The notes: generated from the letters alone by a model not told the origin. Positions 2,891 through 61,187 are shown, counted from the stretch's first letter. The stretch is 64,000 bases of DNA from a virus (IMGVR_UViG_3300022924_000016:64001-128000), one strand, 5' to 3'. Program-made: numbers and translations.

Positions 2891-4678
2891 ATGTGTAAAA
2901 GTAATTGTGATTGCAAAAAATGCTTCTCGGACAATATATGCAACGAATGCCAAGTCAGAACAATGACTGACTGCATAACGGTGAATCCTGAATTACCTAA
3001 TATAGGAACAGAGGCAGGAGAAGTTTTGTCAACAGTTTTGGAGTTAATAGACGCACAGCTAAGTATAACACCGCCAGTACCTACGATATCCATAACAAAT
3101 GTAGGAGCAGGAGAAGAATTATATAAAGGCTTGAGTAATTTAGGCAATTATGAATTTAGAACCTTAGTTCCAGGGTCGGATACTGTAAGCATAGTTCAAA
3201 CCGCCGATACTATAATAATAGACTTCGAAGCACCTGTGGTAACACAGAGAACCTATAGTGCAGTAAATACAGGGACAACTGGCATAGGCGTATTTAGAGA
3301 CGCAACAGTAGGGTCTATAAACACACAGTTTAATTTTAAAAATATAAATTCTGTAAATACGGGCACAGGAACAGATCTCCTAAATGCAGTCGCACAAGTA
3401 GGGGATACTATAACAATCTCTGCAAAAAGAATTGCATCTGACAGTTTGATAATAACAGAGACTGACGGAACTATAAATATAGAGACTCCTACAATTGTAG
3501 ATATACCTAGATTTATAGTGAATTCAGCCTCACAGGCACCTACAGAAGACGGTACTATATCTAAGCCATTTAAAACGATACAGGGAGCACTAACTGCATT
3601 CGTAGGCACAGGCACAGCAATAGCTCCCCAATTTGCAGGAGCAGAAGTAGTAATTCAAAAAGGACTTGGATACTCATTTACAGGGAATTTTAATTACAAT
3701 TCACTTACCATAATATTAGAGGAGTCAACATCTATAGATTCAAATCCTGCTGTGGGAGATTTTATATGCGATTATGATGCACTTTCTGACACTTCATCTT
3801 CAATTAAGATTATAATAAAAGAAGATGCTTCCATCATACTTCAAAAATCAGGATTCAGGAATTCAGGAACAACCACAGCAACCAATAATTTTGCAAATAG
3901 TAAGAGTATTTCTATATCAGGAATGGGTAGCATTAGACAAGTAGTGAACAGCAACACCAATAGCTACAGAATTTTTGATTCTAATTATAATGCAACCAAT
4001 AGCTATAATAATGATGGAGCGTATCAGTTTACTGTATCAGGAATAATAATAGGTACAAATACACAGTCTATTTACAGAATAGGCGGTAATAGCAGGATAA
4101 TACTTGAAGAAGTCTTAATAAGCATTCAAGGTAGCAACACTCTACCAACTACAACTGAATTTTTTAACCAGGTGGGTGGTTCTGCGATATTTTCAAGGGC
4201 AAATCTCGAAATCATACCTGTATTTTCAATAACTTTAAACAGGTTGTTTCCTATATCTCAATCTGCTTCTGTAGCTACTACTTTAGTGTTTAATAATTGC
4301 AAACTTCGCGGAAAAGTACTAACACTTTTTGAAAATATAAGCGTACTTCAGCCTAGCCTGCAAGCATCTTCAAACACGACAGAATTTTTTAATTGTACCA
4401 ACATCATAAAATCTGGCTCTGTCTTCTGGACAAACTGTAGTATGTTTAATAATGTTTTTCAATCTGGTAGACCCGATTTTACACAAGTAGATCTGACAGG
4501 AGCTAATAACTATAGTACATATAATATATTTAACTCAAATGTGGTTGAAAATTTGAGATCTTTTTCAAGCAGGGCAGTGGCTGTAGCGTCAGGACTCAGA
4601 AAAGGGGAAAAATTTATAAATACCGCAGGAGTGGCATCTCCTACAACAGGTTGGATAATAGATACCGTAATGGAATAA
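2891..4678 (+). CDS. tail fibre/spike, probable beta-helix receptor-binding protein
   Basis: Cys-rich N-terminus, Gly/Thr-rich repeats, DGTISKPFKTIQGAL motif that typically precedes a right-handed beta-helix. Confidence 0.7.
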   Translation: MCKSNCDCKKCFSDNICNECQVRTMTDCITVNPELPNIGTEAGEVLSTVLELIDAQLSITPPVPTISITNVGAGEELYKGLSNLGNYEFRTLVPGSDTVSIVQTADTIIIDFEAPVVTQRTYSAVNTGTTGIGVFRDATVGSINTQFNFKNINSVNTGTGTDLLNAVAQVGDTITISAKRIASDSLIITETDGTINIETPTIVDIPRFIVNSASQAPTEDGTISKPFKTIQGALTAFVGTGTAIAPQFAGAEVVIQKGLGYSFTGNFNYNSLTIILEESTSIDSNPAVGDFICDYDALSDTSSSIKIIIKEDASIILQKSGFRNSGTTTATNNFANSKSISISGMGSIRQVVNSNTNSYRIFDSNYNATNSYNNDGAYQFTVSGIIIGTNTQSIYRIGGNSRIILEEVLISIQGSNTLPTTTEFFNQVGGSAIFSRANLEIIPVFSITLNRLFPISQSASVATTLVFNNCKLRGKVLTLFENISVLQPSLQASSNTTEFFNCTNIIKSGSVFWTNCSMFNNVFQSGRPDFTQVDLTGANNYSTYNIFNSNVVENLRSFSSRAVAVASGLRKGEKFINTAGVASPTTGWIIDTVME

Positions 4679-27073: not shown

Positions 27074-29371
27074 TTGAGCTGTAATATAATAAGAGAAAAT
27101 GGAGAAATAAGAGTAGTGACGGATCAAGATACTCCGTCATTGCTTTTCCAGGAGCTAAAAGAAAAATTCACCCAAGAAGAAGCTTTAGAAATCTATAAGG
27201 CTTCTAAATCAGAGGCTTTTGAAACTGTCAACAGAGCTAAGAATGCTTTATTATACTCAGTGAACCAAACTGATGTAAGACTTTCTAGGCAAATCAATGG
27301 AAACTCAATCTCCTATATTCCGACAATCAGAGGAAAAAGAATAGGAACTTTGAGGATAAAAGGGGACAGGGTAGATATGATAACTATTTATGACGCTTTC
27401 AAAGGCAAAGGATACGGAAAGAGTCTTTACAAGCAAGTGGCTAAAGATTTATTTCAGAGAGGAGTACAGCTAAAAAGCGATAATGCTTCAAGTCAAGATG
27501 ATTTGAATGTGTGGGAGTCCCTTGTGAGAGATAATCTTGCCGAGCAGACACCGGACGGCAGATATCAGTTCCTACTCCAAAACAGCTACCCAAACGGCGA
27601 ACCCTCAATGCAAAGCGTCTTAGAATTCCTAAGAAATCAAAACCGCACACAAAGGGAACTTGACACAGAGGAAAGAATAGAACTTAAAAATTTATCTTTA
27701 GGATTTCAAGGAGATTTAAAAGCGGAGATGAACAGGGTATTTTATGACCAAGAAAATTTTTTTACAATAGTCCCGCAAAAAATGCAATCTTTATATTCGC
27801 AATATGAAATTGACAGGATTTTGAAATCACCAAGCCTGCAAAATCAAATAAAAGAAAGTTTAGAAGCATTTCAAAATACGGAATTTGATTTAGTTACAGA
27901 ACAAGAGGTGCCACAAGAACAGTTAGTAAAATCAAGCACAATAGGAAAGTTTGGAAAAGCCCTTTATGAGAATCCAAACCGTCTAAAACAAGATTTGATG
28001 GAGGAAATTGCTGGCGTAGAGGAAGACATGTTTGAAGAAAATCCTTTTATAACTTTAGAAGAATCACAAGAATTTGTAAAAGCAAGAGTTTTAGCAGATG
28101 TAGACGGAACGATAGTAGAGCCTAATCTAGGAGACCGTTTAGCGATTTCGGCTACAATCTTAAAGAATCCTTATAAGGCTGTTTCTGCAATTGTCAAAAT
28201 TACAAATATCTCAGATGAAACTCTTCTAGAAAATCCACAAGAAACTTATAAAGCTCTGAGCAACATTGAAAACGAAGCCTTGAAAATGGGGATAGATGTC
28301 ATAGGAATAAAAGACCAAGCAGATAATCCAACTCTGAAACCTTTCTTAAATGCTTTAGGGGGTGTTATGGAAAATCCCATAGAAGAAAACTTGGCAACAT
28401 TTTCTAAACTCTACTCAGAATTCTTTCCAAGGCAAATCCAAGAAACAAAAGCAATAAGACAGCCTAATGACAGAGATTATATCTACCTAAGAACAGCTTT
28501 GAGTGAGGGTGAAGTTTTCAATCAAATAGGGGCGATAAAAAAAGCGGAAAACGTTTATGTTCAAGTTAATGATAAAACTTTAGAAGAACTCTATGAAATA
28601 GCTTCATATTACAACCCAAGCCTCACACAACAGGAGAACCAAAGACAGGCTCTGAGAATAGAATCGCCCGAAAGAGAAACAGCAGAAAAAATAAATTTAT
28701 TTAAAACTATTTTAGGTTTCGAGGGTGTAAATGAGGGAATTAGTGAGGGTATGAACGAAACTGCTTTCACAGGAAACTACGAATACCTTACAAATGATTT
28801 CGTGGCAGAATTCAATATAAAATCCCTAAGAGAAAAGAAAAAGAATTCTCCAATGTGGCTCAATTTCTATTCAAATTTTGAAATTAATGAGCAAGGTATA
28901 AATTTAAAATATACAGACGACTCAACACTGTCAACAGTAGAAGAGTTAGCTGATGAAAATTTAAGGCAGTACTCTTTGATTTCAAAACAAATGCCGAATC
29001 TGAACCAAACTACTTTAGATGAGAATCCAGATATATCTCAAAAAGAAAGAGATTTTTACGTGAACAATCCACAGATGGCACCTCTGATGCAAAGTCCCAC
29101 AATAGTAGATTCAGAAACCCTAATATCGGATAGTCAAGAAAGGTTCACTAAAAGACAAGATGGAAGTTTATGGGAAAATGTGTTCACTCAAAATGGCAAA
29201 AGCTTATTTAAAAGACAAATGGTAAACAGATCGCAATACAATACCTTTGGAAACCCAAAACCACAATTTAATGAATATGACTTTGACTTGAAAGCAAGCA
29301 TGTCAGATAATTCAAATGTTAAAGATTCCCTAAAAGCAAAAAATATATTAAAAGAAAGTTTTGATTGTTAA
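27074..29371 (+). CDS. internal virion protein containing a GNAT acetyltransferase domain
   Basis: FKGKGYGKSLY acetyl-CoA motif A plus downstream LKSD...VWESL; TTG start; Cys only at residue 3 and at the C-terminus. Confidence 0.65.
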   Translation: MSCNIIRENGEIRVVTDQDTPSLLFQELKEKFTQEEALEIYKASKSEAFETVNRAKNALLYSVNQTDVRLSRQINGNSISYIPTIRGKRIGTLRIKGDRVDMITIYDAFKGKGYGKSLYKQVAKDLFQRGVQLKSDNASSQDDLNVWESLVRDNLAEQTPDGRYQFLLQNSYPNGEPSMQSVLEFLRNQNRTQRELDTEERIELKNLSLGFQGDLKAEMNRVFYDQENFFTIVPQKMQSLYSQYEIDRILKSPSLQNQIKESLEAFQNTEFDLVTEQEVPQEQLVKSSTIGKFGKALYENPNRLKQDLMEEIAGVEEDMFEENPFITLEESQEFVKARVLADVDGTIVEPNLGDRLAISATILKNPYKAVSAIVKITNISDETLLENPQETYKALSNIENEALKMGIDVIGIKDQADNPTLKPFLNALGGVMENPIEENLATFSKLYSEFFPRQIQETKAIRQPNDRDYIYLRTALSEGEVFNQIGAIKKAENVYVQVNDKTLEELYEIASYYNPSLTQQENQRQALRIESPERETAEKINLFKTILGFEGVNEGISEGMNETAFTGNYEYLTNDFVAEFNIKSLREKKKNSPMWLNFYSNFEINEQGINLKYTDDSTLSTVEELADENLRQYSLISKQMPNLNQTTLDENPDISQKERDFYVNNPQMAPLMQSPTIVDSETLISDSQERFTKRQDGSLWENVFTQNGKSLFKRQMVNRSQYNTFGNPKPQFNEYDFDLKASMSDNSNVKDSLKAKNILKESFDC

Positions 29372-40122: not shown

Positions 40123-40614
40123 ATGGACAAGATTAAACAACTACAAAAACAACTTGATGTTGAAAGAGCCAAAGAAAAAAGTAAAGAGCTTGAAAAAATT
40201 AATAAATTGACGGGTATTAGAATTGGGGATGTTGTTGAATTTACTTATGAAGATGGATCAGGTGGTTATGACAGTGAATACTACTGGTCAAAGGGAGAAG
40301 TATACGATATTCATAAATCCTTTGAATCTATTTTTCTCTATATAAAAGGACGACACACTTCTATAAATTTAAAAGATGCTAAATTATTCAATGAAAATGA
40401 CTATGAGATGCGTCACTCTATCTATGAAAGAGAGTTAGACTTAGAAGATGAGTTTCAATTGATTGTTGAAAAACCAAAATCTACAAAAGGAAAAGTGTAT
40501 AAGGTATATAAAATATTAAAGGAAGTAGGTGAAAATATTCAATATTTTTATTGGAATGATTATAATAAATCGCAATCCTTATACGAAGGAGAGTTTTACG
40601 TAACAAAACCTTGA
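40123..40614 (+). CDS. hypothetical protein (SH3/KOW-like IRIGDVV segment)
   Basis: ORF with A-rich leader. Confidence 0.55.
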   Translation: MDKIKQLQKQLDVERAKEKSKELEKINKLTGIRIGDVVEFTYEDGSGGYDSEYYWSKGEVYDIHKSFESIFLYIKGRHTSINLKDAKLFNENDYEMRHSIYERELDLEDEFQLIVEKPKSTKGKVYKVYKILKEVGENIQYFYWNDYNKSQSLYEGEFYVTKP

Positions 40615-41064
40615 AATGGACAAACATCTAAAAGAGCTGTATAACGTGTCAATGGGATTACTTTTAAAAGATACTCAAAATAAATCTTTTTTCACGCAAA
40701 AAGAGTTTGAGAAGAACAGAGCTAAAATTGGAATTATCCATAACGCAAAAGATAAATTAGAAGAAAAATTAAAAGTATGAGATATTACTATCATCACTTT
40801 GGAGACGATGAGCCTGTAGAAGTTTTCATTATACAGGAATCAAAAGGCTTAGTTGAAATTAACCGAGACCCAAAAGCAAGAGCAGGGCATTGGAAAAGTA
40901 AAACACAATTAATCATAAAATAATGGAAAAATCTTTCAAAGAGTTTATTGATATAGTTTTTGGAACGACTATGTTTTTTCTCCTTTTGGTAAATTTTCAA
41001 GAGGATTTAGGAAGTGCTAAACTACTATCGATATGTGCAGTTTTATCTATATTTTATAGAAAGT

Positions 41065-45933: not shown

Positions 45934-47937
45934 ATGAATTTAGATAGTGCAATAGTCTGTGACATAGAATCGGTGGGATTTCTTGATAGTTTAAAGAGCT
46001 TTGAAGATTTACACGTATTCTCTTGCTGTTTTAAATCTGAGGGCACTTGGAAAATAAAGAGCACAAAATCTAAAGAAGACATACAAAAAGTTGTAGGTAA
46101 TAAGAATAATACACTGATATTTCATAACGGAATTTCATATGATAAGCCAGCACTTGAAATTATGGGTTTAGATTTTAAGGCTGAAATAATTGACACATTA
46201 CCACTAAGCTACTATTTATATAGTGAAAGAGATAAGCACGGATTAGCCCAATGGGGAGAATTTTTCGGCGTGAAAAAGCCCGAAATAGAGTCGTGGACTG
46301 GTCTATCGTATGACGAATATCGAGTAAGATGTGAAGAGGATTGTAAGATAAATACAAACCTATGGATTATGATTTTAGATTATATGAGAGTGCTGTACGA
46401 CAATGATGACGAGCTCATAATCAAAACAATAAGGTATTTGAATCATAAGGCTAATATGCTTTATATTCAAGACCAAAATCCCATATTAATAGATGTAGAG
46501 CAGTGCAAGAAGAATTTACAATACTTAGAAGGGATAATTTCGGAGAAAGAATTGGAATTAAATGCCATAATGCCTAAAATCCCTATAACTTCTCGAAGAA
46601 GTAAGCCCAAGGTAATGTACAAAAAGACAGGCGACTTATCAGAGGCGGGGATAAAGTGGCAAGAACTGCTTAAAAACTGCAACTTAGAAGAAGATTATGA
46701 AGGACAGATAGATGTGGTTACAGGTTATACGGAGCCTAATTGCCAAAGTTCTGCACAAATGAAAAAATTTCTTATGCAGGAAGGTTGGGTTCCCACAATA
46801 TTTAAAGATGGGGCAAATGGTAAAGTTCCTCAGCTAAGGGACGATGAGAAAAATTTATGCCCTAACATACAGAAATTGATAGAAAAAGTTCCAAAACTTC
46901 AATCACTTGATGGACTATCTGTTGCACAACACCGCTCAGGCTATTTAAAGGCTTTCTTAGCTCATATAAATGATAAAGGGTACGCCAAGGCTTGGGCACA
47001 CTCTTTTACCCGCACATTGCGTTTAAAACACAGTAATCCATTTGTAAATCTCCCAAAACCTAAGTCTAAATATGGAAACCTAGTTAGAGCCGTTATGATT
47101 GCCCCTAAAGGGTATGTTTGTATAGGTGCAGATTTATCAAGTATAGAAGATAAGTGCAAGCAGATTTCCATATTTTCTCTAGACAGAGAGTATGTAGAGT
47201 CTATGAACAGTAAGGGTTGGGATGCACACTTAGCTCTGGGGCTAAAAGCAGGAATGTTTACAGAAGAGGAGGTTCAATTTTATAAATGGTTTAACTCTAA
47301 GGATAAAAAAGAAAATGATTACACTTGCCCTAAGAGTTTTTCTCACCTTTCAGAGGAAGAGCAAGAAGTACTTTTTGACGTATTAAGTAAGAAAAGGGCT
47401 ACAAGTAAGACAGGAAATTACGGATTGACTTATGGATGTGGTGTGGCTAAACTTATGGAATCCACGGGATTAAGTAAAAAGGAGTCTGAAAACCTACATA
47501 AAGGATACCACGCCATAAATTGGGCGGTTAAAAAATTCGCCCAGGATAGAGTGGTTAAAACTGTCAAGGGTAGGAACTGGTTAAGGCTTAATAAAAAGGC
47601 AGGGGGGTTGTCAGAAGTAAATGAAACAACTTGGATATGGAACGAGTACTCTAATATGTGGCTATTTTTAAAAAATGATAAGGATAGGTTTTCTAGCTGT
47701 AATCAGAATTTTGGAGTGAAGGTTTTTGATGTTTGGAGTTGGTATTTGATTCAAGGAGGTATCACTCCCTCATATCAAGCGCACGACGAACAGCTCTGGT
47801 ACTGTAAAGAGGAAGAAGTAGGAAAACATATCAAAATTATAGAGGAAAGTATTACAAAGGTTAATGAAATATTTAATCCTCCTATTCCTTTGGAGTGCGA
47901 TTATAAGATAGGAAAGACATACGCGGACGTCCATTAA
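45934..47937 (+). CDS. polA: family A DNA polymerase with 3'-5' exonuclease
   Basis: Exo I CDIES, Exo II HNGISYD, Exo III YRVRCEED; motif A ADLSSIE, B KTGNYGLTYG, C AHDE. Confidence 0.92.
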   Translation: MNLDSAIVCDIESVGFLDSLKSFEDLHVFSCCFKSEGTWKIKSTKSKEDIQKVVGNKNNTLIFHNGISYDKPALEIMGLDFKAEIIDTLPLSYYLYSERDKHGLAQWGEFFGVKKPEIESWTGLSYDEYRVRCEEDCKINTNLWIMILDYMRVLYDNDDELIIKTIRYLNHKANMLYIQDQNPILIDVEQCKKNLQYLEGIISEKELELNAIMPKIPITSRRSKPKVMYKKTGDLSEAGIKWQELLKNCNLEEDYEGQIDVVTGYTEPNCQSSAQMKKFLMQEGWVPTIFKDGANGKVPQLRDDEKNLCPNIQKLIEKVPKLQSLDGLSVAQHRSGYLKAFLAHINDKGYAKAWAHSFTRTLRLKHSNPFVNLPKPKSKYGNLVRAVMIAPKGYVCIGADLSSIEDKCKQISIFSLDREYVESMNSKGWDAHLALGLKAGMFTEEEVQFYKWFNSKDKKENDYTCPKSFSHLSEEEQEVLFDVLSKKRATSKTGNYGLTYGCGVAKLMESTGLSKKESENLHKGYHAINWAVKKFAQDRVVKTVKGRNWLRLNKKAGGLSEVNETTWIWNEYSNMWLFLKNDKDRFSSCNQNFGVKVFDVWSWYLIQGGITPSYQAHDEQLWYCKEEEVGKHIKIIEESITKVNEIFNPPIPLECDYKIGKTYADVH

Positions 47938-47958: not shown

Positions 47959-47990
47959 TTTGCTTTTCTGAAATACTTTTTGTAAGTTTG
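47959..47990 (+). promoter_or_regulatory. Bacteroidota promoter upstream of LAGLIDADG leader
   Basis: TTTG 47959-47962, 20-nt spacer, TAAGTTTG 47983-47990. Confidence 0.7.
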
Positions 47991-47993
47991 CAA

Positions 47994-48130
47994 TGTTGAA
48001 AATAGAGAGGGCAAGTCTTTATGAGTAGACAAATTAAAAATAATAAGAATAGCAATAAAATATTTCAAAAAGCTTTCATAGATTGTTTTCACTTGCCCTG
48101 AATACAGTCCTTGGGAGCTTTTTGTATTTA
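47994..48130 (+). ncRNA. structured 5' leader with two hairpins and complementary loops (GGGCAAG / CTTGCCC)
   Basis: Hairpin 48002-48022 and ~26-bp hairpin 48066-48124 with U-rich 3' end. Confidence 0.65.
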
Positions 48131-48137
48131 AGATAGT

Positions 48138-48866
48138 ATGGAAAAATTAACAAACGAACAAAGGCAAGTACTCTTAAGCGGTATTTTGGGAGATGGGCAC
48201 TTAAAGAATGGAAGAGCAATTTTTAGTTGTATACACAAGGAGTATATGGAATTAAAAAAGAAGTTATTGGGGGATTTATCTCTACTTGTAGAAAGAAAAC
48301 AAAACAGCGGTTTTAAAAAAGATGCTTTCATCTATAAATTAGGTACTTTGGCACACCCTGAGATAAAAGAGATGGAAAAATACTCTACAAAACGAATTCT
48401 TGAAGAGATTGACGAGTTAGGTATTGCGCTATGGATTGCAGATGATGGCTCAAGGCACAAGAAGAATAACTTTTATAATATAAATACACACGCATTGCCA
48501 AGATATGAAGAGGAGCAACACTTACTACCATTCTTTAACAGCATCGGCATATTTCCTAGAATTACCACAGAAACTAAAAAAGATGGTAGATGCTTTTCTT
48601 ACCTATATATCCCTAAGTGGGAGGGAGCTATGGAACTTTCGAGAATTCTAAGAAAACTAGAGTTAAATTGCTATGATTATAAGCTTATGCCTATTGAAAT
48701 GGAGGAGGCATATTTTAGAAACAAAGATTTAGAAGAGTTCAAAATGGCAAATAGTTATGGGAGAACTAAAATAATTAAGAATGGAATGGGGCTGACATAT
48801 AAGGACATACTTCATAAGAATGTCACATCAACAGAAATGAGAATTACTAATAGCGCAAACATATAA
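48138..48866 (+). CDS. free-standing LAGLIDADG homing endonuclease (two-motif type)
   Basis: VLLSGILGDG and IALWIADDG motifs. Confidence 0.85.
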   Translation: MEKLTNEQRQVLLSGILGDGHLKNGRAIFSCIHKEYMELKKKLLGDLSLLVERKQNSGFKKDAFIYKLGTLAHPEIKEMEKYSTKRILEEIDELGIALWIADDGSRHKKNNFYNINTHALPRYEEEQHLLPFFNSIGIFPRITTETKKDGRCFSYLYIPKWEGAMELSRILRKLELNCYDYKLMPIEMEEAYFRNKDLEEFKMANSYGRTKIIKNGMGLTYKDILHKNVTSTEMRITNSANI

Positions 48867-48891: not shown

Positions 48892-49197
48892 TTGGATAAG
48901 TTGTGGGAAAATACATTTCCTAATACTAAAATTATATTTTCAATGTTTGACTTCGATGAAAATGATTCAGAAAATGTTGTAATACCCACAGTAGATTTTA
49001 CTTCCGAAATTCCAATTATAAAAGGAAAGTTTAGTGTAGGGTTTCACACTTGGAAAGGATTGATAACACAATCAGGCACAGATTTGACTTGGAAGAAGCT
49101 TATAAAAATTTTAGATAAACATAATGATGGAAGCCACATATTCCTAGAGGTTGTAGATGTTATAGGTGATAAGGCTTTTGTATTCTTAGGGTCTTAA
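48892..49197 (+). CDS. hypothetical protein (start possibly frameshifted)
   Basis: HIFLE...FVFLGS C-terminus; better-placed ATG 48869 is out of frame by one A. Confidence 0.5.
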   Translation: MDKLWENTFPNTKIIFSMFDFDENDSENVVIPTVDFTSEIPIIKGKFSVGFHTWKGLITQSGTDLTWKKLIKILDKHNDGSHIFLEVVDVIGDKAFVFLGS

Positions 49198-50415: not shown

Positions 50416-50597
50416 CACTAATTATTTTAATACTTCTGTTCATAGCCTATAAATATTTTAAGCCTGACATTGAATGGATTGAAGAGAGTGAGATTTTGAT
50501 TATGCACTATCGTAAAGGGTTAAGTAGGGATTATATGATTTTGTGGAGAAAGAACCGTTCGTTTTAATTCTTTTTTTCCGCGCTAAAAACTAAATAA

Positions 50598-50996
50598 ATG
50601 ACAGATTGGCAACCCCACCCCGACTATAAGAATATGTTCTTTAAGATCAAGGATTTCAATGACTTTACATACTCTGTACAAATCACTTTATTAGAGAACA
50701 AAAGGTCTCAAAAGTTCTATGTCACAGCTTCTTCGGGTAAAAAGAGAAAAGATATGGAAGTATTTGAACAAAAAGCTGATAAATCCCTAGGCGGGATGAA
50801 AGCTTTACTGTGGATAAAAGAAACAGCTTTAAGTTTTACAGAGTGGTTTAATTTTCTGTATAAGGTAAAAGAAAATCAATATCTTTGTATAGGTTGGGCA
50901 GATAGCCGTAGAAGAAATATTTACGAGAGGCTTAAAAAAGACGGTTTTATCTTTATGATGGATGAGGGACAGAAAATATTAATGAAGAAATTATGA
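50598..50996 (+). CDS. hypothetical protein
   Basis: 132-aa ORF; IGWADSRRRNIY. Confidence 0.6.
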   Translation: MTDWQPHPDYKNMFFKIKDFNDFTYSVQITLLENKRSQKFYVTASSGKKRKDMEVFEQKADKSLGGMKALLWIKETALSFTEWFNFLYKVKENQYLCIGWADSRRRNIYERLKKDGFIFMMDEGQKILMKKL

Positions 50997-55121: not shown

Positions 55122-55739
55122 ATGTTCGTCAATTTTAAAGTTGTAGATAAGTTCTTAAAAGAATTTAAGATAGAAGATTTATTTTTTATTCTCGCCGTAA
55201 AACAGCAAGACCGAGAAAACATACAAGAGTATTGTAATTTAAGTTCAAGCCAAAAACTTTTAGATTCAGGCTATTTAAAACGAATCAAAAACGGTGAATT
55301 AAGGCTTGATAAAAAAGGTACAGAGTTTTTAAGGGATTTGGGTAAGTCAGACAAGATTAGCGAGGATACAGAGAAACTATGTTCTTGGCTGGTTGAATTG
55401 TATCGAGGTAGAGAAGATGGAATCGTGAAAAATAAACAAGAAATTCGTAGAAAGGCTCAGTGGTATTCGGACGAGACAGGGATCTTTAAAAATCGTTTAG
55501 CTGTATTGTTGCAATGTTTTATGCAAGACTGCTACACAAAGGAATCTGGCTTGACAATACAAGAGTTTAAAGAACAGAATCCAAGAATGTGCATGAACAA
55601 TATGTTGGACAATTTATTCTATAAGCCCGAATCAATGTTCGACAAGCACTACACACTTGCCAAATCTCCTTTGAATAACTACTTTGAAGATAACCAACAG
55701 TACATTGAAGAGGTTTGGCGAAAAAACAATTTAGAATAG
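55122..55739 (+). CDS. hypothetical protein, possible N-terminal winged helix (replication-associated?)
   Basis: LLDSGYLK...LRLDKKG resembles a wHTH wing. Confidence 0.5.
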   Translation: MFVNFKVVDKFLKEFKIEDLFFILAVKQQDRENIQEYCNLSSSQKLLDSGYLKRIKNGELRLDKKGTEFLRDLGKSDKISEDTEKLCSWLVELYRGREDGIVKNKQEIRRKAQWYSDETGIFKNRLAVLLQCFMQDCYTKESGLTIQEFKEQNPRMCMNNMLDNLFYKPESMFDKHYTLAKSPLNNYFEDNQQYIEEVWRKNNLE

Positions 55740-55741
55740 AA

Positions 55742-59965: not shown

Positions 59966-60069
59966 TCAGATTCTTACTGGCATATTTATCTGATATAAAC
60001 GAATTATTTATTGAGAGACTCTTTTCATTAACTGTGCCAGCGGTTTTTGATTGGGGTTTTCTTGTTTTT
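59966..60069 (+). ncRNA. structured 5' leader with two hairpins and complementary loops (CTGGCA / TGCCAG)
   Basis: Hairpin 59966-59993 and hairpin 60013-60063 followed by a T-run. Confidence 0.55.
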
Positions 60070-60080
60070 AAGCCGAAGTA

Positions 60081-61187
60081 ATGGAGCATTCAGAGTTTTT
60101 AAAAAGATTAGAAAAAAATGAACACTTTGTAAGTGGGTATTTTAAAGTTATAAGTAAATATCAATGTGATAAATGTAAAGTACTGGTTGAAACACCTTAT
60201 GGGGTTTGTGCATGTGATCCTAGAAATTTATATGAGCATAATACAAGACCCACAATTATGACAGCGGTTGATAAAAATAGTTACTATTCAAATTATATTA
60301 AAGAACACAATGAAAACTATAAAAATAATAACTTTGAAATTGTTTCAGACTTCATAGGTTTTAATAAGGAGATATTTGTTAAAACAGAATATGGAGTTCA
60401 TAAAACAACTGCCAATAGCTTAAAACGAGGAGAGATGCCTGGAATAAACAGTGCTGTTAATAAGGTAGATTATGTTCATAACCAATTAATTGAAACAAAC
60501 GAATATTACAGAAAAGGACTATTTAAAGTAATAAGTTATAAAAGAGGAAAAGTCACTTTAGAAGACAGTTTTGGGTTGTGTACTATGTTATTAAATGATT
60601 TGGTTAACAACTGTCAACCCACTATTTTAAGTGCTGTGGACAAGACAGATTATATTAAAAATAAATTTAAGGATTTAATACACTATGGTAATTATGACTA
60701 TTCTAAATTTGTATATGATTGTGCTAGATGTAAATCTATAATAATCTGTAGAGAACATGGTGAATTTTATCAAACCCCCTCAAAACATTTAGGTAACCAA
60801 GGGTGTCCTAAATGTGGTAGTATAAGAACTGGAAAATATATGCTTGAAAACCCAAATGGTTGGAATTATACGAATTGGCAAAATGCAGGAGATAGAAGTG
60901 ATAATTTTGACTCATTTAAAGTATACATAATCAGGTGTTGGAATGAGCAGGAGGAGTTTTATAAGATAGGAAAGACTTTTGTAACTGTAGAAAGTAGATT
61001 TAGGTTAAAACTATTGATGCCGTATAATTATGAAATTATTGAACAGTTTATTTTTAATAGCTCAAAAGAAGCATCCAGGTATGAGTTACACTTACAAAAA
61101 TTGAATAAAAAGTCTACCTATAAACCTTTTATTTTATTTAATGGGTCAAATGAATGCTTTAATAAATATTCTTTAACAGTCCTATAG
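60081..61187 (+). CDS. putative homing endonuclease: three tandem repeats, CxxH/CxxC zinc ribbon, GIY-YIG-like C-terminus
   Basis: PTIMTAVDK / PGINSAVNK / PTILSAVDK repeats; ICREHG...GCPKC; VYIIRC...YKIGKT. Confidence 0.7.
   Translation: MEHSEFLKRLEKNEHFVSGYFKVISKYQCDKCKVLVETPYGVCACDPRNLYEHNTRPTIMTAVDKNSYYSNYIKEHNENYKNNNFEIVSDFIGFNKEIFVKTEYGVHKTTANSLKRGEMPGINSAVNKVDYVHNQLIETNEYYRKGLFKVISYKRGKVTLEDSFGLCTMLLNDLVNNCQPTILSAVDKTDYIKNKFKDLIHYGNYDYSKFVYDCARCKSIIICREHGEFYQTPSKHLGNQGCPKCGSIRTGKYMLENPNGWNYTNWQNAGDRSDNFDSFKVYIIRCWNEQEEFYKIGKTFVTVESRFRLKLLMPYNYEIIEQFIFNSSKEASRYELHLQKLNKKSTYKPFILFNGSNECFNKYSLTVL

Follow-up and report, generated by a model that had tools for sequence, protein, structure and literature searches.

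A class of two-hairpin phage leaders with covarying complementary loops in front of free-standing endonuclease and other genes

Introduction

How free-standing homing endonucleases are controlled within their own phage is understood only for a few genes of the T4 family. In the T-even phages, endonuclease genes are held down by hairpins and internal terminators, examples being the hairpins of I-TevI, I-TevII, I-TevIII, segB and Aeh1 mobE, the internal terminators of mobE and segF, and the hairpin of seg43(25) (reviewed in PMC2988022). Here, we consider a LAGLIDADG endonuclease gene of an uncultured phage, and ask what the structured stretch between its promoter and its start codon is and what it may do. 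A preliminary description of this stretch (47959–48137), made from the sequence, had proposed a promoter followed by two hairpins with complementary loops, and had read them as a cis-regulatory RNA that throttles toxic endonucleases, either as a loop–loop attenuator/antiterminator or as a translation switch.

The window analysed, 64,000 nucleotides long, covers bases 64001–128000 of a viral contig of 141 kb (33% G+C). Among public sequencing runs, a leaf-litter metagenome, which may be the source sample, is the only one to contain it in full, and no RNA run is listed as containing it. For comparison, we fetched 20 loci encoding LAGLIDADG homologues, together with nine related or comparison phage genomes, which were taken whole. 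A single-sequence search for related endonuclease-bearing loci returned none; an alignment query succeeded.

Results

The leader at 47959–48137

The features of this locus, in window coordinates, are as follows.

45934–47937, plus strand: gene for a family A DNA polymerase (PolA; Pfam DNA_pol_A)
47959–47962 and 47983–47990, plus strand: cassette promoter of the Bacteroidetes type, a pattern match with a −33 TTTG, 20 nt and the −7 box TAAGTTTG
48002–48022, plus strand: hairpin 1, ATAGAGA (48002–48008) paired with UCUUUAU (48016–48022), 7 bp with one G–U
48023–48065, plus strand: A-rich single-stranded linker, 43 nt (54% A, 16% G+C)
48066–48124, plus strand: hairpin 2, 23 bp in three segments (13 bp, a 2×2 internal loop, 6 bp, a 1-nt bulge, 4 bp)
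48138–48866, plus strand: gene for a free-standing, double-motif LAGLIDADG homing endonuclease, 242 aa, intact (Pfam LAGLIDADG_2)

The PolA gene is complete, its C-terminus (..GKTYADVH) aligning with the ends of its relatives. The LAGLIDADG protein has 56 homologues at 43–74% identity, across which GDG and DDG are invariant. A group I intron with its LAGLIDADG ORF at 48138 was rejected as an explanation of the locus, PolA being complete to its conserved C-terminus and Rfam giving no match.

Promoter, hairpins and complementary loops are all present where the preliminary description had put them. Hairpin 1, which begins a few nucleotides 3′ of the predicted transcription start, displays the 7-nt loop GGGCAAG (48009–48015; site 1), and its exact reverse complement, CUUGCCC (48092–48098; site 2), forms the apical loop of hairpin 2. 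Pairing had been thought extendable beyond the loops, and indeed the complementarity reaches 9 nt (48008–48016 with 48091–48099). Hairpin 2 had been given as about 26 bp; its position, its U-run and the 13 nt between G48124 and the ATG at 48138 stand, while its size is 23 pairs, or 28 pairs (48058–48129) in the MFE fold. Its 3′ arm is terminator-like, running through GGGAGC into UUUUU (48119–48123), with the U-run lying within the 3′ end of the stem. The segment 47995–48130 folds at −32.4 kcal/mol (z = −3.05 versus dinucleotide shuffles), and hairpin 2 at 48066–48124 is more stable in the sense than in the antisense strand (−25.4 versus −18.7 kcal/mol). Among the 28 gene starts of the window, only the leaders before 48138 and 60081 stand out.

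The second of these leaders lies in front of an unrelated endonuclease gene, as had been proposed.

59966–59993, plus strand: hairpin 1 of the second copy, UCAGAU (59966–59971) paired with AUCUGA (59988–59993), 6 bp
60013–60069, plus strand: hairpin 2 of the second copy, stem 60013–60063 and U-run UUUUU 60065–60069
60081–61187, plus strand: gene for an endonuclease of another family, 368 aa (PHROG phrog_681 endonuclease, 1e-23)

The loop of its hairpin 1 (16 nt) holds CUGGCA (59977–59982), and for UGCCAG (60035–60040) to form the apical loop, a fold 2.1 kcal/mol less stable than the MFE is required. This second copy is real, but weaker than the leader at 47959–48137. The arms of its hairpin 2 are homologous to those of two other leaders that carry different loops. 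The protein encoded at 60081 also has a weak HNH match to phrog_559, and a Pfam search with it gave no match.

Two other hairpins of the window deserve mention. Before the ORF at 50598 (50440–50597), the 17-nt loop of a 12-pair hairpin (50542–50582) can pair over about 14 bp (−10.5 kcal/mol) with sequence at most 100 nt upstream; this hairpin might be a weaker relative of the kissing-loop design, or chance. A 24-pair hairpin at 55650–55741 (about 119650–119741 of the contig; −18.5 kcal/mol) with the loop AAGAUAAC precedes an ORF start and is of the same size class without the kissing feature, no complementary partner of its loop having been found upstream.

Whether the RNA belongs to a known family had been left as a question by the preliminary description. 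Rfam 15 gave no match to the whole window at gathering thresholds, and at permissive E-values the segment 47900–48200 returned chance-level hits only (E of at least 1.3; 13–18 bits versus cut-offs of 50–119). Full-text literature searches found no kissing-loop leader for endonuclease genes; single clusters may be listed in the tables of PMC10690425, which catalogues 10,006 candidate structured viral RNAs.

A recurrent class with constant geometry

The layout occurs in 17 instances, spread over six related phage genomes and three metagenome contigs and using about 15 different complementary loop pairs.

Window's genome (G000): 4 instances
G001: 1 instance
G002: 2 instances
G003: 5 instances
G008: 1 instance
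G010: 1 instance
Metagenome contigs: 3 instances

The four leaders of the window's genome precede the LAGLIDADG gene, the gene for the 368-aa endonuclease, an Endonuclease VII/HNH-like gene 3.9 kb beyond the window, and, on the other strand, a primase-like gene. Five of the loci fetched with LAGLIDADG homologues (L004, L005, L007, L008 and L014) share the layout of the window leader with other loop pairs, namely ACGCAAC/GUUGCGU, UGGCGG/CCGCCA (two loci), AGCUCUGA/UCAGAGCU and GGUCGGA/UCCGACC.

Geometry is held within narrow bounds. Sites 1 and 2 are 53–83 nt apart in the 17 instances, and the distance from the end of site 2 to the ATG is 35–42 nt in 15 of them. A TAnnTTTG-like box lies 13–34 nt 5′ of site 1 in 16 instances, the exception being the G002 leader of a 296-aa product, where none was found in the 48 nt examined; from the end of the −7 box to site 1 there are 13–22 nt in most copies. 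Site 1 lies in the loop of a weak hairpin and is enclosed by a stem of at least 5 bp in 16/17 instances, compared with 48% of random sites. Linkers are A-rich throughout, and hairpin 2 has 15–29 pairs, usually with an internal loop that separates the lower stem from the upper stalk, at whose apex site 2 is displayed.

The window leader also contains a 26-codon uORF (48021–48101), which starts in the 3′ arm of hairpin 1 and ends with a UGA directly after the hairpin 2 loop; the other leaders have no conserved equivalent, and this uORF is probably fortuitous. Leader-peptide attenuation was rejected, uORFs being absent from most other instances.

To judge chance, we ran a census of the nine whole genomes in which hairpins were chosen blind to complementarity: they had to lie in the 90 nt before an ORF of at least 80 aa and to have 14 or more pairs, an energy of −16 kcal/mol or better and a loop of 5–13 nt. 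For each loop, the reverse complement was then sought over the 100 nt upstream, with 3000 random windows from its own genome as background. The complement was found upstream at p ≤ 0.02 for 9 and at p ≤ 0.05 for 11 of 23 hairpins; with the loop sequence reversed, the count was 0/23. This control was preferred to a complement-only one because several loops are reverse-symmetric, so that the complement-only control matches the true site. The probability of at least 9 of 23 at p = 0.02 is estimated near 4e-10, the instances not all being independent. Given the census and its reversed-sequence control (9/23 versus 0/23), chance is excluded at the level of the class.

Beyond these genomes, a DNA pattern search of viral contigs for leaders homologous to the second copy of the window returned only the known G003 copy and chance matches, and no such leader was found in the first 50 kb of the cultured relative Cellulophaga phage phi38:1.

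A sense-strand RNA structure ending in a terminator signature

Across the class, the sense fold of hairpin 2 is more stable than the antisense fold in 16/17 instances (14 of the 15 tabulated, often by 7–15 kcal/mol), and its stems contain 0–6 G–U pairs. Because of these G–U pairs, the bias towards the sense fold, the placing of the sites precisely in loops and the position of the promoter outside the sites, the structure points to the sense transcript and not to a DNA repeat. A feature of the DNA itself, such as an inverted repeat for recombination, an endonuclease target or a cruciform, would have in its favour that sites 1 and 2 do form an inverted repeat and that the cassettes are mobile (see below). 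Yet that repeat is only 6–9 bp long and sits exactly in the loops of two local hairpins, which, like the strand bias seen in nearly all copies and the promoter outside the repeat, makes a DNA-level role barely credible; coincidence, which we group with it as disfavoured, runs against the census and its reversed-sequence control.

The 3′ base of hairpin 2 bears a second mark. A T-run of at least 4 is found there in 16/17 instances, compared with 25% of random windows and 21% of the regions upstream of ordinary ORFs drawn from the same genomes; for runs of at least 5, the corresponding figures are 12/17, 10% and 8%. The enrichment has a binomial p of 3e-9, several instances being mutually homologous, so that p-values overstate independence. 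A stable hairpin, a G/C-rich lower stem and a U-tract directly after it are thus combined, and hairpin 2 with its T-run carries what we read as the signature of an intrinsic terminator, one that is much longer than textbook terminators. A generic terminator scan, which found fewer sites than in shuffles, did not call hairpin 2, because its stem rules do not fit interrupted stems.

Loop pairs covary and are private to each leader

When every loop is matched against every leader, a loop always finds a complement of at least 6 nt in its own leader, whereas matches of that length to other leaders occur in 12 of 272 comparisons, some of them between related leaders. The most direct comparison is offered by three leaders that share the sequence of the hairpin 2 arms (..GCUUCUUUCAUUAAC..) and differ in their loops, the pairs being CUGGCA/UGCCAG, CUGCGAA/UUCGCAG and AUGCAA/UUGCAU. 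Hairpin 2 of this trio has four compensatory pairs (RNAalifold); since the MAFFT alignment sets the G003 member one column out of register in hairpin 1 and the loop, the loop pairs were read directly from the sequences. We take the loop pairing of the trio, with three different matching pairs on homologous arms, to be true covariation. Its absence in homologous leaders had been named as the result that would speak against a regulatory loop–loop contact, and the opposite was found: the view of a recurrent class of structured leaders with covarying loop pairing is borne out by the 17 instances and by this trio.

The same pattern of kept architecture and changed sequence recurs elsewhere. Nucleotide similarity between the window and L004, L007 and L008 starts exactly at the ATG, the coding sequences being 67–69% identical and the leaders unalignable with the architecture kept. 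The leaders of the primase-like genes of G000 and G010, two phages whose PolA proteins are 38% identical, have similar lower stems and different loop pairs (GUGGAAAGG and AAUAGCCGA with their complements). Two hairpins with Watson–Crick complementary loops, the pairing of which is kept by covariation, are what defines an intramolecular kissing-loop complex, here a predicted one.

Some loop sequences are shared. The pair GUGGAAAG/CUUUCCAC is common to the primase-like leader of the window's genome (L055:2584–2700; G000 40584–40700, minus strand) and to an HTH-like leader (L040:9135–9240; G003 28935–29040), and UCUCAC is common to two other leaders. Such shared kissing sequences could reflect common leader ancestry or a preferred sequence.

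Private pairs would also suit a regulator that acts in trans. A terminated, stable small RNA of about 125 nt carrying both loops could kiss the nascent leaders of its own cassette and set their termination or decay, in a logic like that of P4 CI or the pT181/pIP501 countertranscripts: the order promoter, terminator, gene would yield such a short RNA, every cassette within a genome has its own loop pair (four in the window's genome, five in G003), and cross-matches between cassettes are rare. Private codes are, however, equally expected from neutral compensatory drift, and with both partners on the same molecule 53–83 nt apart, pairing in cis is kinetically favoured. We therefore consider self-addressed feedback very unlikely.

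Genes behind the leaders

The genes behind the leaders are mostly free-standing endonucleases of unrelated families, as had been claimed. They include LAGLIDADG_2 genes (six instances), Endonuclease_7-type genes with zinc ribbons (G001, G008 and a similar gene in the window's genome), a 365-aa HNH gene in G003 and the phrog_681 gene of the window. In G003 (103575–103833; L044:4577–4833), an intact leader with the pair CUGCGAA/UUCGCAG stands before a 41-codon remnant of a zinc-ribbon endonuclease gene, and has thereby outlived its gene.

A restriction to endonucleases, implied in the preliminary description, does not hold. Two primase-like genes (BT4734-like_N with PriCT_1), which are not endonucleases, lie behind leaders, one of them at the head of a leftward operon in a divergent promoter region, and so do two homologous HTH-like genes. 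The leader class is not confined to endonucleases, and the diversity of the downstream proteins speaks against a single ligand that would be the protein product of the regulated gene.

Leader and gene as one mobile cassette

Promoter, leader and endonuclease gene are common to L005 and L014 over 1.2 kb at 72% identity. The upstream genes of the two loci differ, and it is precisely from their stop codons onwards that the sequences are similar. Judging from such boundaries, promoter, leader and gene move as one cassette. At the window locus, similarity to L002, which has a 64% identical PolA and no endonuclease gene, ends at 47960, where the cassette promoter begins. In L002 (6000–6070), a TATATTTG box and a plain, A-rich 17-nt leader precede the next gene, which shows the ordinary promoter-to-ATG distance in this clade.

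That a plain 17-nt leader suffices for ordinary genes under this type of promoter bears on the question of whether the structure simply protects or processes the message. RNase III sites set mature 5′ ends in the T7 and lambda leaders, and the enzyme requires about 20 bp. The 5′ hairpin and kissing lock might shield the message from 5′-end-dependent nucleases, or the duplex of at least 20 bp might be an RNase III site that sets the mature 5′ end. A hairpin 1 that begins a few nucleotides from the predicted start site, and a hairpin 2 of about two helical turns (15–29 pairs) with a recurrent internal loop, would both suit such an element. It would leave the conserved U-tract and the fixed spacing to the ATG unexplained, as well as the plain leaders of ordinary genes, and we think it quite unlikely to be the main role.

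Homologous endonuclease genes without a promoter of their own are also without the leader, the gap to the upstream stop codon being −13 to +18 nt. In the closest homologues (58–74% identity; L003:2495–2501, L010, L011, L023:771–776 and the contig of P0003), which have neither promoter nor leader, the ATG is adjacent to, or overlaps, the stop codon ending an unannotated gene (about 700 aa, without a Pfam match). This arrangement suggests translational coupling as an alternative route to low endonuclease expression.

More distant LAGLIDADG homologues (38–43% identity) interrupt PolA right after the ‘HD’ of motif C (L017:2300–3350, L006, L018, L019, L021 and L022); in L017, the rest of the polymerase is a 48-aa ORF (3200–3346) ending in ..GKCWIH. 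These elements, found in human-gut contigs, are probably group I introns, and five intron-type loci gave no Rfam match at gathering thresholds. The same endonuclease family thus occurs in three settings: within PolA, directly behind it, and behind a different gene. The PolA-interrupting homologues have a TATATTTG box and a short leader with no long hairpin. A terminator in such intron-borne copies would cut off the second exon of PolA, which would fit the missing hairpin.

Discussion

Recurrence and covariation of the leader, the latter in the loop pairing and in both stems, are solid, and the reading of its function that we prefer, a promoter-proximal attenuator holding down its downstream gene, is plausible; we would put its chances at about even. 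It is derived from the T-run signature being placed after a promoter and before a gene, and the termination itself, the net limit on expression and the direction in which the kissing contact acts are all what we infer from that arrangement.

According to this attenuator model, a host-type promoter would drive a two-hairpin leader RNA of about 130 nt, making the whole a self-contained expression cassette. The small 5′ hairpin would present site 1 (6–9 nt) in its loop. The long hairpin would consist of some 12 bp of lower stem and, beyond an internal loop, some 10 bp of upper stalk; it would carry the complementary site 2 at its apex, and its 3′ arm would enter a U-tract that ends roughly 5–20 nt before the start codon. 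Pairing of the two loops within one RNA molecule, a kissing complex and formally a pseudoknot, may lock the leader in one compact fold. The long hairpin and U-tract would act as an intrinsic terminator stopping most transcripts, whether initiated at the cassette promoter or arriving by read-through from upstream, so that a set fraction would reach the endonuclease gene. On read-through transcripts, the hairpin beside the start codon could further restrict ribosome loading.

The loop–loop contact would tune or secure this fold, and three effects can be envisaged. It could stabilize the upper stalk, the folding of which is needed for quick closure of the lower stem; if formed first, it could slow lower-stem closure; or it could make the terminated leader a compact, stable RNA. 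Of the loop–loop attenuator/antiterminator suggested earlier, the attenuator half is thus compatible with hairpin 2 and its U-run, but the antiterminator half is not: no alternative pairing was found, the complementarity of site 1 stopping at the loop with 0–1 extra bp and not reaching the terminator stem. Because complementarity is confined to the loops, the kissing contact does not compete with the terminator stem.

The length of hairpin 2 beyond that of textbook terminators and the missing call by the generic scan count against attenuation, and so do further observations. A terminator in a row of co-directional genes would also cut transcription of the next gene, and no TAnnTTTG box precedes the ORF at 48892. 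In addition, the tight spacing to the ATG fits translation control at least as well as transcription control. The leader might then be mainly a translational gate, in which a long hairpin 5′ of an A/U-rich ribosome landing region limits 30S loading in a host without Shine–Dalgarno pairing, the kissing contact stabilizes the closed fold, and the U-tract is landing region or stem instead of terminator. The near-constant distance between site 2 and the ATG (35–42 nt in 15/17) and an extended stem that ends 1–24 nt from the ATG agree with such a gate, and there is precedent in phage 25, where seg43(25) has a stable hairpin just upstream of an unsequestered RBS, as well as in other T-even endonuclease genes that use RBS-sequestering hairpins (PMC2988022). 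Here, however, the strong part of the stem includes neither the start codon nor the 5–18 nt 5′ of it, fraying at the stem base should not respond to an apical contact, and the U-tract would go unexplained, given that ordinary genes of these genomes show no upstream T-run enrichment. Nor do the loops pair with the start region, where site 1 has a match at p ≤ 0.05 in 2/17 and site 2 in 5/17 instances, mostly with weak energies; this leaves the simple translation switch of the earlier proposal, and likewise a three-way switch with the start region, unsupported. Altogether, we regard a mainly translational gate as unlikely.

Several known systems share parts of this design. As in the leaders of T-even endonuclease genes, cis RNA structures front selfish endonuclease genes whose expression they are thought to hold low, and promoters, hairpins and intrinsic terminators are combined; the very stable hairpin just upstream of an RBS left unsequestered is a feature of seg43(25). 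T-even hairpins, in contrast, sequester the RBS and have a late promoter inside the hairpin. Here, the ATG at 48138 and the 13 nt before it are outside the 48066–48124 stem, and the promoter, in place of being an embedded late or middle one, precedes both hairpins (box at 47983–47990), leaving the start codon free. Two hairpins with covarying loops, in a design common to unrelated gene families of Bacteroidetes-type phages, are a further difference.

Promoter-proximal attenuators such as lambda PR′–tR′ with its 6S RNA, and riboswitch platforms, have the same order of promoter, short structured leader, hairpin with U-tract, and gene. Unlike in those systems, no antiterminator alternative, conserved ligand pocket or nut/qut-like sequence was found here, and the sole long-range contact is made by the apical loop of the terminator. 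The likeness to P4 CI and P1 C4 noted in the preliminary description is sound as far as short complementary leader sequences go, and is otherwise an analogy: P4 CI (seqA/seqB/seqC), P1/P7 C4 and pT181/pIP501 also rely on short complementary loops encoded in leaders and tied to premature termination or blocked expression, but they act in trans via processed or antisense RNA and serve immunity or copy-number control, whereas both partners here belong to one leader, with one site pair per leader. The leader of T4 gene 32, again a phage mRNA, likewise carries a pseudoknot close to its 5′ end, with A/U-rich sequence between that fold and the start codon; the gene 32 pseudoknot is a small H-type fold which nucleates gp32 binding for autoregulation, in contrast to the long terminator-like hairpin described here.

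A bolder version of the preferred attenuator reading would have the leader serve as a portable expression governor on mobile phage cassettes. The contact between the 5′ hairpin and the terminator tip would then set terminator efficiency kinetically or topologically, and not through competing stems, while private loops could restrict terminated RNAs to their own cassette. We offer this as a speculation and consider it unlikely.

What stands is one easily recognized RNA design with strong covariation and no database entry. In an uncultured phage clade, it is used by some replication genes and by endonucleases of at least four unrelated families. It is a sequence-independent marker for mobile cassettes in phage metagenomes. 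If a loop–loop contact on a terminator does dose expression, this would be a new regulatory principle for attenuators and would provide a compact part for synthetic biology, programmable in that any complementary 7-mer appears to work.
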